This document shows positions 29,504 through 36,609 of a stretch of DNA of 64,000 bases, piece by piece. The DNA is from Candidatus Thorarchaeota archaeon. GTDB taxonomy: Archaea; Asgardarchaeota; Thorarchaeia; Thorarchaeales; Thorarchaeaceae. The notes beneath the pieces are model-generated. The model was given only the letters and a program-made list of their open reading frames with translations. It was not told the origin of the DNA and did no database searches. The position numbers and the translations under genes are program-made. The stretch lies in the NCBI GenBank assembly GCA_038893995.1, contig JAWAQK010000001.1, positions 32,001 through 96,000 on the forward strand, read 5' to 3'. Position 1 is the first letter of the stretch; each line of letters opens with the position of its first letter.

Positions 29504-31807
29504 TCAGGAACGTATGTAGGACCTACGGTTGAGGACCGAACCGAGATGGACCATCACTCTACGCTCCACCATCGCAACACCATCCATCATCCGGACTGCA
29601 CGAGAGATATTCGAGAGCACTGCATTCATGTACGGTTGTACCCTTGTCGGCTCTCCTTGAGCCATCATCCCTATGTAGGCATTGGTTATCTTTACTAGTC
29701 CTAGCCAGTCCTCGGGAAGTAGGAATGAAGACTCAAGGAACATATCATCTGATGGAATGGTTTCGGTGTGATCCACAGACACCTCGTACTGAACCTCAAG
29801 GGCACTTAGAAGTCGCGAGAGCATATTTGTGAACGACGTTGCAACTGAGAGAATGAACTCACGAGACTCTGAGATCGATGAGTCTTCTGAATGACATCTT
29901 CCGAATGACACGGCAGCTTGATGCAGCAGAGGAGCCAGTTCCTGGTGATTCCTGTTCTCGAAGAAGAGTCGGATTCCACTAGCCAGCAGGGCCTGGCCCT
30001 CCCAGTATCTTGTCAGGACGGGGTCAATATCATGTACCGAGAACTGCTCAGGACTGACGATGCCACTGACTGTTTCCGTACCAAGAGGTTGGATGTTTAT
30101 CTTTGCTGTAGCAAAGGCCGCCATCAGCCTACCTACATCTCTGAGTTCAGAGTTGCGCTCCACGAGACTGAGGGCCCTTCTCTTGAGTTGGAACCAGTCA
30201 CCGAACATCAGAGGCACAGCGAGTGATATTCCTTCAACGATCGAGGGACTGTCAGGAGGGCACAAGTCAAGGATCATCCTATCCAGATCAAGAATGACCC
30301 TGCGCAGTCGCTCAGGAATGAATAGTCTATGCCTCAGAGAGAGCCAGGCAATATCGTACAATGCGATTGCGGCCTCGACAAGAGCACGCGAGTCAGAGGG
30401 AAAGAGTCGCATGTAGCGCAGTAGAGATTCACTCAGGAGATCGTTCGCACGGTCATCAATCGTTTCGGACTCACAGATTGCCGCGAGGCCCAATCCAACC
30501 ATGGAGCTCAGTAATGCAATCTCCAGGCATTGACCCTTGTTGAGTAGAGATGTCCTCATCTCTACAGAACGCTGAAACGACTCAACTGCGGCAGACCGAA
30601 ACTCTGCAGACTCCGAGAGTAGACAGGCCCAGCCAATAGCATGCAGACAACTGGCGATCTCAGACATCATGTCGTTCTCTGGAGACTTCAGGTCGTCTGC
30701 GACTTTCTGAGCCCGGCGGAGGTAGTCGATTGCAAGTGCTGTGCCGTCATCACTTCCGGTCAGGCTGTGGGCATGGCCGAGACCTACTAGGCAGCGCAGC
30801 AATGCCATCCGCTGCTCTCTTGTCGGGTCCTCGATCGATTCATAGACTGCGAGAGCCGCGTTCAGGCGTTCTACGGCCTGGGGTATCGCCTCCCGCCACC
30901 CACCAATGAGTATCGTCGAACCTACTAGAAGATATGCTGCCGCGAGATCGCCCCTGGTCATAAGACCTGCATCCACGCTTCTCTCGTACTCCTGCAGTGC
31001 ACGGTCAGCAAGGTCACGGGCAGTCTGATAGCTCACACCTTCGTCTCGCGTCTCATTTATCGCAAGCTGGAGAGCCAGTTGAATCCGTGATGCGGGCGGG
31101 AGTTCGGAGCCCATCTCTGATTCAAGCTGTTTCAGTAGACTCCTGGAGCGATCGAAGAGTTCCAGGTCAGTAAGGACGGAGGCGAGGTCCAGGGTGAGGT
31201 CCAGCAAGAGGTCTCTGAATCCCAGCTGTCGTGATACTGAGAGTAGCCGGTCCAGGAGTGGTTCGGCACACTCTGCAAGGCCTTCATCCATCAGGGACCT
31301 GGCCAGGTAGTGCACCTCGGCCACTGCCAACTTGGTGAAGGATATCTGGTCACGGGCGATGATCGAGTCTAGCGTATGGAGTGTTTCGTCAGCCAGGAAT
31401 GCCAAGAGGGGACGTAGACCATGCCCTAAGGAGACTGACATGGACTGGCCCAGCTCACCAAGCAGGTCAATCAGAATTGGCAGAGCCTCAAGATCGGGAA
31501 GGTCCTCCGCCGCCGTACGTCTGTACTCATTGGTGAACCTGGTGTCCAGTAGAGATATCAGCTCTGACAGCTCCGATGTCTTATCAAATGAGTGACGCAC
31601 GATGAGTTCAAGGAACTTGTAGTTTGCAAGTGCCGGCCTTCTGAGAAGCACTTCCTCGAGGGCTCGTGCCAACTCATGACCCAGTTCATGAGAGTCGGGG
31701 GAGAAACGTGAGATTCCTTGAAGTGCAGCGAGACCATCGTCGAGGGAGACAGATGCACACAGTAGGTCCCTCAAGATTGTCCGAATCCTTGGATCCAAAC
31801 AGTTCAC
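29504..31807 (-). CDS. Large alpha-solenoid/TPR-like protein
   Basis: 767 aa, Leu/Ala-rich helical repeats (AAAYLLVG, CLVGLGHAH, SCLHAIGWA). Confidence 0.65.
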   Translation of the reverse strand: MNCLDPRIRTILRDLLCASVSLDDGLAALQGISRFSPDSHELGHELARALEEVLLRRPALANYKFLELIVRHSFDKTSELSELISLLDTRFTNEYRRTAAEDLPDLEALPILIDLLGELGQSMSVSLGHGLRPLLAFLADETLHTLDSIIARDQISFTKLAVAEVHYLARSLMDEGLAECAEPLLDRLLSVSRQLGFRDLLLDLTLDLASVLTDLELFDRSRSLLKQLESEMGSELPPASRIQLALQLAINETRDEGVSYQTARDLADRALQEYERSVDAGLMTRGDLAAAYLLVGSTILIGGWREAIPQAVERLNAALAVYESIEDPTREQRMALLRCLVGLGHAHSLTGSDDGTALAIDYLRRAQKVADDLKSPENDMMSEIASCLHAIGWACLLSESAEFRSAAVESFQRSVEMRTSLLNKGQCLEIALLSSMVGLGLAAICESETIDDRANDLLSESLLRYMRLFPSDSRALVEAAIALYDIAWLSLRHRLFIPERLRRVILDLDRMILDLCPPDSPSIVEGISLAVPLMFGDWFQLKRRALSLVERNSELRDVGRLMAAFATAKINIQPLGTETVSGIVSPEQFSVHDIDPVLTRYWEGQALLASGIRLFFENRNHQELAPLLHQAAVSFGRCHSEDSSISESREFILSVATSFTNMLSRLLSALEVQYEVSVDHTETIPSDDMFLESSFLLPEDWLGLVKITNAYIGMMAQGEPTRVQPYMNAVLSNISRAVRMMDGVAMVERRVMVHLGSVLNRRSYIRS

Positions 31808-31854
31808 CCGCGATGCGGGTTGACTATTTCATTGGACTGTTAAAGACTTCCGTA

Positions 31855-32562
31855 TCAGCTGAGTCTGAACTCGACCCACGCGCGCTTGGTCTCAGTCCCT
31901 CTCATTCTCTCCATCCGCACGAAGAACTTGGGAGTATCGCTAGTATCATCCACCCTGAATCTCAGGACCGCATCTGCGGAGTACGCGAAGCTGGCATACG
32001 TCTTGTCGTCATGTACCCCCTCCTCGAGAATGTACATGATACTGTGAGAACCCTGAGTCAGTCGACCGCTGAGTCTTTGCACGGCCTGAGGTAGAGCTGC
32101 AGCACTGGAACTCATGATGAGTGTCGTCAGGCTGTCAACCACGACTCTTGCAACTACAAGTTTCTCCAGCGCCTCCGTGAGGACGATTCCAAGCTCTGTT
32201 ATGTCGTCGACCTTTGAGAGTGAGTAGGGACTTGTGCTCTTGACGCCCATCCGGTCCGAATACCCATCTACAAAGGTGAACATACCATTTCGCTCGTGCT
32301 TCTCGATCGGCCAACCATGTCGGCTCATGTCGTTTCGTATCACTCTGGGAGATACATCTGTCGTCACAAAGACCGCAGGGAAACCCAGCACTAGCCCCTC
32401 GGCGAGATATGCCTCGGCATACGTGGTCTTTCCAGAGCCTATCGGCCCCAGTAGCAATATCGACTGTTGAGTCAGTTGGCCAAACTCGACCAGGTCTCCT
32501 AATGTGGGGCTCACCTTGACAGGGTTGCGTTCGTCGATTCGACTATCATCTCGAGCCGTCAA
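31855..32562 (-). CDS. KaiC/RAD55-family ATPase, single domain, catalytic EE missing
   Basis: GPIGSGKT, FVTTDVSP, VVVDSL, RMRGT. Confidence 0.88.
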   Translation of the reverse strand: MTARDDSRIDERNPVKVSPTLGDLVEFGQLTQQSILLLGPIGSGKTTYAEAYLAEGLVLGFPAVFVTTDVSPRVIRNDMSRHGWPIEKHERNGMFTFVDGYSDRMGVKSTSPYSLSKVDDITELGIVLTEALEKLVVARVVVDSLTTLIMSSSAAALPQAVQRLSGRLTQGSHSIMYILEEGVHDDKTYASFAYSADAVLRFRVDDTSDTPKFFVRMERMRGTETKRAWVEFRLS

Positions 32563-35954: not shown

Positions 35955-36036
35955 ATCTAAAAAGAGTTGTGAGGATGCGATGGGCCCCTCAAGTCAGTAT
36001 GGTATGGGTGGCTGGTGGTCCGAAGATGAGCATGGC

Positions 36037-36609
36037 TCAGAGAGTACTCTGGCCAATCGACTCGACCATCATGATGATGAGCTCAATGAATGCCTTCTCC
36101 ACGTTGTGTCCGGTCTTGGCAGATGTTTCAAGGAAGACCGTGCTGACCCCACTTTCTCTGAGCGCCTGTGTGAACTTCTCACCCTCCTGCGTCGTGACTA
36201 TCGATCCCTTCATGGCAGGATTGTCCTTGAACTGGTCCCGGAGATCAGTCTTGTTGCCGATGACTACAATAGGAATGGTCTTGCCTGTGTTCGCCCAGCA
36301 CTCCTCAAGCCAGTTGGGAAGATTATCAAATGACGAACGTTCCACAGTCGAGTATACAGCCAATGCTCCCTGGGCACCCTTGTAGAAGGTTGATCGTACG
36401 TTCTTGAAGTGAGCCTGTCCAGCAAGATCCCATATCTGGATGTGCACCTCTGTGCCACTCTCAAGTGCCAGTTTTTTCACTGCGAAATCGGCGCCGATGG
36501 TGACCATGTATGAGGCCTTGAAACCTTCGCCCATGTAGGTCCGACGGAGCGAAGTCTTACCTACTGAGCCGTCGCCCATGAGAACTATCTTGAACAATGC
36601 TCTCGGCAT
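36037..36609 (-). CDS. Rab-like small GTPase
   Basis: GDGSVGKT, TIGADF, WDLAGQ, FYKGA, NKTD, ETSAK. Confidence 0.95.
   Translation of the reverse strand: MPRALFKIVLMGDGSVGKTSLRRTYMGEGFKASYMVTIGADFAVKKLALESGTEVHIQIWDLAGQAHFKNVRSTFYKGAQGALAVYSTVERSSFDNLPNWLEECWANTGKTIPIVVIGNKTDLRDQFKDNPAMKGSIVTTQEGEKFTQALRESGVSTVFLETSAKTGHNVEKAFIELIIMMVESIGQSTL

Follow-up and report, generated by a model that had tools for sequence, protein, structure and literature searches.

The locus described here occupies positions 29504-36609 of a 64,000-nt stretch of Thorarchaeota DNA and carries eight genes, which encode a roadblock protein, a thioredoxin, two KaiC-like ATPases, a long helical protein, two Rab-like small GTPases, and a WD40 protein. 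The whole stretch is called the window below, and all coordinates are positions within it. Genes were read from the listing of open reading frames (ORFs), and domains were assigned by a Pfam search. An initial annotation, made from the letters of the sequence, had proposed a minus-strand run leading from a roadblock gene through a thioredoxin-fold gene and two KaiC genes to the gene of a 767-aa helical protein, next to a divergent gene for a Rab-like GTPase, a convergent and overlapping WD40 gene, and a gene for a second Rab-like GTPase. All eight ORFs are present at the coordinates and on the strands that it gave, and the Pfam matches agree with the order of the run as well as with the arrangement of the other three genes. 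The genes, together with the spacer from which two of them diverge, are the following:

29504-31807, minus strand: TPR767, 767 aa, with a weak Pfam match to TPR_12 (20.1 bits vs. a cut-off of 30.1)
31855-32562, minus strand: KaiC2 (Pfam KaiC, 98.6 bits)
32590-33363, minus strand: ORF of KaiC1 (Pfam KaiC, 241 bits), the probable gene being 32590-33333
33314-33685, minus strand: thioredoxin Trx123 (Pfam Glutaredoxin and Thioredoxin_3)
33724-34110, minus strand: roadblock protein Robl128 (Pfam Robl_LC7, 26.9 bits vs. 23), first gene of the minus-strand run
34111-34257, both directions: putative divergent promoter region between the Robl and Rab1 genes, from an alignment of 17 orthologous spacers
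34258-34806, plus strand: Rab1 (Pfam Ras, 172.9 bits)
34794-35954, minus strand: WD40_386 (Pfam WD40, 166.9 bits)
36037-36609, minus strand: Rab2 (Pfam Ras, 149.8 bits)

The Robl and Rab1 genes stand head to head with 147 bp between them, and the Rab1 and WD40 genes are convergent with a 13-nt overlap. The initial annotation had joined all eight genes into a single hub in which KaiC ATPases are coupled to GTPase switches. The coupling of a core set survives an inversion between two Thorarchaeia families and recurs in one clade of KaiC proteins, but it is not supported for the whole eight-gene hub. From the comparison of sequences we consider it reasonably probable that the locus is a conserved Asgard signalling module, made up of KaiC1, Trx123, KaiC2, Robl128, and the Thor-Rab ortholog Rab1, to which lineage-specific parts were added.

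The comparison with the sister family (f2, genome G025) supports a core composed of Rab1, the roadblock protein, a CxxC thioredoxin, an active KaiC1, and a degenerate KaiC2. In this genome, the genes of a GTPase 56% identical to Rab1, of Robl, of Trx, of KaiC1 (64% identity), and of KaiC2 (51%) are co-directional with gaps of 0 to 76 bp, and the gene of an EF-2 paralog follows the five-gene run directly. Neither a TPR767 nor a WD40 ortholog is found in this sister-family module. The orientation of Rab1 in its own family is inverted relative to the sister family; the adjacency has therefore survived a rearrangement. Robl adjoins the Rab1 ortholog in the sister family and in 16 of the 17 family loci that have both genes, with a 1.2-kb insertion in locus L029, and in each of the 19 family loci with both genes of the Trx-KaiC1 pair the junction between them stays between -26 and +26 bp. 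Conservation of gene order, which the initial annotation had put forward as a check, is thus found within the family, but there it is uninformative: in 20 orthologous loci from 16 genera, compared by tblastn, the stretch from thyA to cofE (about 20 kb, housekeeping flanks included) is equally collinear throughout. Because this whole stretch is collinear, synteny inside the family cannot discriminate function.

Both ATPases exceed the gathering cut-off of the Pfam KaiC family (PF06745, 26.6 bits), with 241.4 bits for KaiC1 and 98.6 bits for KaiC2. In an alignment of orthologs, the motifs of KaiC1 are intact and invariant or nearly so, namely Walker A (GKAGTGKS), the catalytic EE in TLEEPP, Walker B (VVIDTLS), and KLRG. 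Only positions 8-240 of the 515 positions of the NCBIfam KaiC model are covered, which correspond to the CI half. By these features KaiC1 is assigned as a complete, single-domain, CI-like, and active ATPase of the KaiC type. It is conserved better than any other protein of the whole 20-kb stretch, with 74-85% identity to its family orthologs. Its start is most likely the ATG at 33333, which gives a 20-nt overlap with the thioredoxin stop, because the orthologs align from residue 8-11. KaiC2 is 63-74% identical within the family and keeps its Walker A and Walker B motifs. Since DV replaces the catalytic EE in 21 of 21 aligned orthologs, hydrolysis has probably been lost, and KaiC2 is probably a catalytically degenerate paralog that binds nucleotide without hydrolysing it.

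The run had been thought to form a redox- or time-gated ATPase module. Timing fails the tests for a circadian KaiC: KaiC1 does not reach the corresponding equivalog models (159 and 203 bits for TIGR02655 and NF006799, vs. cut-offs of 546 and 408), and the duplicated CI-CII architecture is absent from this single-domain protein. The redox part stands insofar as the thioredoxin is of the redox type by its conserved CxxC. Indeed, Trx123 matches the Pfam Glutaredoxin family with 25.9 bits vs. a cut-off of 22.9 and carries a CPFC active site and a cis-proline. The motif C[AP]FC, together with the cis-proline in ALPT, is conserved across families f1, f2, f13, and f18. The best NCBIfam match is the MJ0307-family thioredoxin, below its cut-off (43.4 vs. 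92.75 bits). We read Trx123 as a true redox-type thioredoxin and not as KaiB. The label "KaiB-like" given to it at first was abandoned, since the KaiB models stay far below their cut-offs (PF07689, 16.8 vs. 27 bits; TIGR02654, 19.7 vs. 145.3 bits) and both the CxxC and the cis-proline are conserved.

The GTPase of the core belongs with a protein of known structure. The best match of Rab1 in the Protein Data Bank (PDB) is Thor-Rab (7EZB, E 7.6e-79), followed by Rab14, Rab2, and Rab11 with E values of about 1e-43 to 1e-37. In Thorarchaeota SMTZ1-45, the gene at the Rab1 position of the cluster encodes a protein that has 100% identity to 7EZB and 68% to Rab1, and the contig with this gene also carries orthologs of TPR767 and Rab2. 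Thor-Rab (PDB 7EZB, 7EZD, and 7EZE; Tran et al., 2024, PMC10933270) hence occupies the same place in the cluster, and sequence and position both mark Rab1 as its ortholog. The paper on Thor-Rab mentions neither the genomic context nor KaiC nor thioredoxin, and states that pairing Asgard GTPases with their regulators from genome layout is difficult (PMC10933270). Rab1 ends with ARSQTG and Rab2 with IGQSTL, neither of which offers a C-terminal cysteine for prenylation; Thor-Rab likewise has no C-terminal prenylatable cysteines (PMC10933270). Among the five orthologs compared at the switch-I position, Arg37 is present in the window Rab1 and in two others, the ortholog at locus L032 having His and the sister-family one Thr. 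The idea of Arg37 as a universal finger of the MglA type was dropped, as the residue is not conserved across orthologs.

Robl128 consists of a single roadblock/LC7 domain (PF03259), for which its sister-family ortholog scores 22.1 bits, just below the cut-off. Its PDB matches are weak and comprise LAMTOR2 and an archaeal roadblock protein (best E 0.0023); Robl128 is not among the roadblock proteins that were crystallised in the work on Thor-Rab. It is a candidate regulator of Rab1. Complex prediction had been suggested for the pairs of proteins, and a model of two Robl128 chains with Rab1, GTP, and Mg, computed using alignments, gave an ipSAE of 0.50 vs. 0.03 for the best control. The runs share at least 92% of contacts, and the pLDDT of the partner is at least 87. 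This score lends weak support to the interaction and may reflect memory of the solved MglA-MglB structures. The locus resembles the MglA/MglB system (Myxococcus xanthus and Thermus thermophilus; PDB 3t1q) in that a gene for a small GTPase of the Ras superfamily stands beside a gene for a single-domain roadblock protein, and in that Arg37 of the window Rab1 corresponds in position to the intrinsic finger of MglA (PMC10933270), a residue that not all orthologs share. It differs in that the window GTPase is Rab/Ras-like and not MglA-like, and in that the roadblock gene is embedded in an operon with thioredoxin and two KaiC genes. A second cluster, with the order roadblock, small GTPase, roadblock, occurs in the same genome (G000:C46:12651-15003) with no KaiC nearby.

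The link between KaiC and small GTPases is also found in other Asgard lineages. Hidden Markov models of the cluster proteins were used to scan 48 neighbourhoods around the best KaiC1-like genes of 17 other Asgard families, and a maximum-likelihood tree was built from 60 Asgard KaiC-like proteins. All KaiC copies linked to a GTPase or to a thioredoxin, KaiC1 included, are grouped in a single clade (19 rows, support 94/91). Of the 19 clade rows, 13 have a small GTPase within 1.5 kb, vs. none of the 37 others (Fisher 1.4e-8, the rows being related). Counted by family, the link is found for seven of eight in the clade and zero of 14 outside it (4.7e-5). Over the 48 neighbourhoods, GTPases number 7.2 per 100 kb at up to 1.5 kb from KaiC vs. 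1.5 per 100 kb beyond 3 kb. Adjacency of GTPases to this KaiC clade thus exceeds chance. No KaiC::GTPase fusion was found in the same 48 neighbourhoods, and the other four KaiC-like genes of the genome under study have no GTPase, roadblock, or thioredoxin neighbour.

Three linked lineages are Hodarchaeota, Freyarchaeum/Jordarchaeaceae, and Atabeyarchaeia. Hodarchaeota combine KaiC, a Rab-family GTPase, a GvpD-like ATPase, and CheY, next to a PAS histidine kinase, and in Freyarchaeum/Jordarchaeaceae KaiC is followed by the GTPase. The row of Atabeyarchaeia contains a 152-aa longin protein, a CxxC thioredoxin, KaiC, and a Rag/Arf-like GTPase (L046 8035-11214, G036; L070 7277-9177, G046). The 152-aa protein gave an NPR2 lead of 0.93 in an Atlas search, and its AlphaFold2 (AF2) model (pLDDT 76.6) matches GATOR1 NPRL2/3, the SEA complex, and DENN in Foldseek; by this predicted structure it is assigned as a longin domain. 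Atabeyarchaeia would then follow the same logic, with a longin protein and a Rag/Arf-like GTPase, both non-orthologous, replacing roadblock and Rab.

Some of these loci hold further genes. At the Hodarchaeota locus L047 (7239-16337, G035), the GvpD-like ATPase has 488 aa, the histidine kinase is a multi-PAS protein of 1009 aa, and there is a divergent pair of degenerate KaiC-like genes; this cluster ties the KaiC-GTPase pair to two-component signalling. L046 has a further upstream ORF of 139 aa without a family. In family f18 (L078 6414-8544, G048), two tandem thioredoxin-fold genes, one with CAFC and the other without a CxxC, precede KaiC1 and a degenerate KaiC, and no GTPase is adjacent.

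If the locus is a signalling module, the following mechanism can be envisaged. KaiC1 would assemble into a ring of the RecA type, in which KaiC2, as an inactive partner, might be mixed in or on which it might be stacked. The thioredoxin bound to this ring could modulate its nucleotide or phosphorylation state and so provide a redox input. The state of the ring would then be passed to the GTPase switch through a roadblock dimer, which might act on Thor-Rab as a GTPase-activating protein, a nucleotide exchange factor, or a platform, in the manner of MglB or Ragulator. In Thorarchaeota, the TPR767 solenoid would have been added downstream as a scaffold or an effector.

Of the remaining genes, that of TPR767 belongs to Thorarchaeota. 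The AF2 model of the protein (pLDDT 86.8) is an all-alpha solenoid of 34 helices, and its top Foldseek matches are generic TPR proteins, namely Ctr9, Ski3, the IFT-A arms, LGN (TMt 0.65), and RapI. On this model TPR767 is taken as a TPR-type solenoid, the Pfam TPR_12 match staying below the cut-off as given above. The gene is single-copy in 22 of 24 genomes of its own family, and a profile detects it in 70 of 76. The same profile finds it in none of 225 other Asgard genomes, and all 65 loci recovered with it come from metagenome-assembled genomes of Thorarchaeota type, including SMTZ1-45 and AB_25. Among 1.84 billion representatives there are only three full-length clusters. TPR767 is thus a Thorarchaeota-specific addition downstream of KaiC2, with a probable role as scaffold.

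WD40_386 is a beta-propeller with a C-terminal helical tail, for which no ortholog was found in the sister-family genome at E < 1e-40. A conserved TATA-like box overlaps the ATG annotated for it, and translation therefore probably starts at a Met further downstream. Rab2 is about 45% identical to Rab1, and its relative in the sister family (55%) is located elsewhere, between DUF2299 and DUF134 genes. In five of the 17 family loci with both genes, the gap between WD40 and Rab2 is 1.35-1.6 kb; at the one such locus that was examined (L018), this spacer contains a gene on the opposite strand that matches no known family. Within their own family, WD40 and Rab2 are neighbours that have been conserved, and at most they are candidate participants in the module.

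The TPR, WD40, and second Rab proteins are not to be counted as core parts. For all three, the proposed wiring into the hub comes down to co-location within one family: WD40 and Rab2 do not stand beside the module outside it, and TPR767 is confined to Thorarchaeota, has a promoter-like element of its own, and is missing from the sister-family locus.

The spacers suggest how these genes may be transcribed. Promoter-like elements were deduced from alignments of orthologous spacers, 17 of them for the Robl/Rab1 region. Conserved TATA-like boxes stand upstream of five genes, those of Robl, Rab1, TPR767, WD40, and Rab2:

34148-34159: TATA-like box of Robl
34137-34145: conserved motif ATTGCGCAT, between the TATA-like box and the start of Robl
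34207-34219: TATA-like box of Rab1
34242-34251: Shine-Dalgarno-like GAGGATGTGA, in the divergent Robl/Rab1 region
31839-31847, minus strand: TATA-like element of TPR767, 32-40 nt before its start, family consensus GTGAAAGCTTTTAAC
35954-35966: TATA-like box of WD40
36657-36671: TATA-like box of Rab2

The TPR767 element is kept in most of the orthologous KaiC2-TPR spacers. From Robl to KaiC2 the spacers measure 27-38 bp or the genes overlap, and within this run a conserved TATA-like box is found only before Robl. Because of these short or missing spacers and of the TATA-like boxes elsewhere, the likely transcription units are Robl-Trx-KaiC1-KaiC2, with possible read-through into TPR767, and Rab1, WD40, and Rab2 each separately. 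The motif ATTGCGCAT, which may be an operator, is near-palindromic and occurs in about 10 of the 17 orthologous spacers, with a second copy across the TATA box in some loci; its 8-mer is present only about 10 times per Mb of genome. Another conserved motif lies in the Robl-Trx spacer at 33699-33712 (family consensus CAAAACATTCAAGTGA, window AACATTCAATAGAG) and could be an internal promoter, a ribosome-binding context, or a binding site. In genome G003, from one Thorarchaeota genus, the breakpoint of a chromosomal rearrangement falls exactly within the divergent Robl/Rab1 promoter region, and ABC-transporter genes now stand upstream of Robl.

Several observations weigh against a single conserved module. 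The collinearity of the entire thyA-to-cofE stretch makes in-family synteny uninformative. The G003 breakpoint lies exactly between Robl and Rab1 (contigs C40 and C24; loci L026 and L052), Robl-Trx-KaiC1-KaiC2-TPR remaining on the EF-2 side and Rab1-WD40-Rab2 with PolB; the Robl-Rab1 adjacency is therefore not obligatory. The promoter-like elements of Rab1 are distinct from those of the Robl operon, and the residue noted for Thor-Rab as an MglA-like intrinsic finger, Arg37, is replaced by His in one ortholog and by Thr in that of the sister family. In a tree of the GTPases, the KaiC-linked ones of different lineages form no single orthologous group, so that repeated recruitment is indistinguishable from rapid divergence and co-diversification is not demonstrated. 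Finally, KaiC proteins of the clade stand without a GTPase at the Hodarchaeota loci L061 and L062 (G131 and G045) and in a paralog of the genome under study (C17).

Part of this would be expected if the locus held two unrelated modules, a Trx-KaiC1-KaiC2 unit and a Rab/roadblock unit with WD40 and Rab2, that are neighbours by descent in a slowly rearranging region. The collinearity across 16 genera of the whole 20 kb, with nrdD, thyA, the EF-2 paralog, PolB, larC, and cofE, favours such an account, as do the exact split between Robl and Rab1 in G003 and the separate promoter-like elements. However, at breaks Robl always stays with the KaiC genes and not with Rab1, the sister family has the five genes in one direction and with short gaps, and only one KaiC clade, across seven families, shows the adjacency to a GTPase. 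We therefore regard two functionally uncoupled modules as unlikely. Still less probable is a proto-coat or an assembly similar to GATOR/Ragulator, in which WD40 and TPR767 would be structural subunits recruited by the two Rabs and the roadblock protein and remodelled by KaiC. A beta-propeller, an alpha-solenoid, two small GTPases, and a roadblock protein do lie within 7 kb, TPR arms of IFT-A are among the Foldseek matches, and Atabeyarchaeia have an NPRL2/3-like longin with a Rag/Arf-like GTPase. Yet only one family has TPR767 and WD40, which are missing from the sister-family module, propeller and solenoid are not fused and belong to separate genes with their own promoter-like elements, Ctr9, Ski3, and LGN score as well as or better than IFT-A for what is a generic TPR fold, and no coat subunit is among the top Foldseek matches. 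The likeness to eukaryotic coat and nutrient-signalling assemblies seen in the initial annotation thus goes back to generic folds. As in Rag-Ragulator and GATOR1 (LAMTOR roadblock, NPRL2/3 longin), a roadblock protein in the window or a longin in Atabeyarchaeia is encoded with small GTPases, the best PDB matches of Robl128 include LAMTOR2, and the Atabeyarchaeia longin model matches NPRL2/3; in contrast, the window has neither a Rag-type GTPase bearing a C-terminal roadblock nor amino-acid sensing parts, and the similarity is at the level of the fold only.

A timer of the KaiBC type, hourglass or clock, would take the thioredoxin-fold protein as a KaiB analogue and the two KaiC proteins as split CI and CII. 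KaiC1 does align to the CI half of KaiC, weak KaiB matches exist below threshold, and a thioredoxin-fold gene precedes KaiC as in kaiBC. In cyanobacteria, too, the KaiB-KaiC pair, and the thioredoxin-like N-terminal domain of SasA on KaiC CI, resemble a thioredoxin-fold gene just upstream of a CI-like KaiC. We nevertheless hold this timer to be very improbable. Unlike in the cyanobacterial system, the CxxC and cis-proline are kept, the KaiB models fail by the scores given above, the KaiC proteins are single-domain, KaiC2 appears to be catalytically dead, without its catalytic glutamates, no kaiA gene is present, and the circadian KaiC equivalogs are not reached. Least credible of all, and scarcely worth retaining, is an NTPase-based defence or conflict system. 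KaiC-like ATPases, TPR, WD40, and GTPases recur in described NTP-dependent conflict systems, which counts in its favour. However, when the eight proteins were compared with the PADLOC models, all that appeared was a generic match to WD40 and two P-loop hits below significance. Moreover, unlike variable defence islands, the genes are single-copy, keep a fixed position, show strong conservation, and are missing from hardly any genome of the family.

The conserved signalling module hence remains the preferred reading. Makarova, Galperin and Koonin reportedly proposed, in mBio in 2017, that archaeal single-domain KaiC-like ATPases are hubs of signal transduction. KaiC1 and KaiC2 resemble these hub ATPases as stand-alone P-loop proteins of the KaiC/RecA-like type among signalling-type genes, and in Hodarchaeota the neighbourhood also includes a GvpD-like ATPase, CheY, and a PAS histidine kinase. 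A literature search, the coverage of which did not extend to the 2017 article, found no paper tying KaiC-like ATPases to small GTPases, to roadblock or longin proteins, or to a dedicated CxxC thioredoxin. A bolder proposal, which is possible but which we hold with real doubt, is that of an undescribed ancient Asgard architecture: a KaiC subfamily, often with a dedicated redox-active thioredoxin, would control or serve as a platform for GTPase switches and their roadblock or longin regulators, with the Thorarchaeota TPR and WD40 proteins as effectors. If true, an ATPase input of prokaryotic type would have been wired to G-protein modules of eukaryotic type before eukaryogenesis. Asgard archaea have dozens of eukaryote-like small GTPases, and to our knowledge a regulator or an input is known for almost none of them. 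The locus offers the crystallised Asgard Rab a candidate regulator, the neighbouring roadblock protein, and a candidate upstream input, the thioredoxin-KaiC pair. KaiC-GTPase linkage recurs in Thorarchaeia, Hodarchaeota, Freyarchaeum/Jordarchaeaceae, and Atabeyarchaeia; such a spread suggests a general control of Asgard G proteins, which bears on the origin of eukaryotic GTPase regulation.

The genes that surround the locus are housekeeping genes. On one side stand nrdD, thyA, the gene of a helix-turn-helix (HTH) protein, that of a hexapeptide transferase, and that of the EF-2 paralog; on the other stand PolB, larC, cofE, and mtrH. A scan of the window for tRNAs and Rfam families gave no match. 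The EF-2/EF-G paralog (694 aa, 27415-29499) is convergent with TPR767 and ends 4 nt away from it; it is 55-59% identical within the family, and in the sister family its gene directly adjoins KaiC2. Beyond Rab2, a 189-aa ORF without a Pfam family (36855-37424) overlaps the family-B DNA polymerase gene at its annotated start (37348) and is partly conserved, with 37-54% identity in five family loci. At 25386-26784, the thymidylate-synthase ORF matches the Pfam model over no more than its C-terminal two thirds and overlaps the start of a 279-aa ORF of the AsnC/MarR-type HTH class by about 150 nt; the true start of this HTH gene is probably further downstream.

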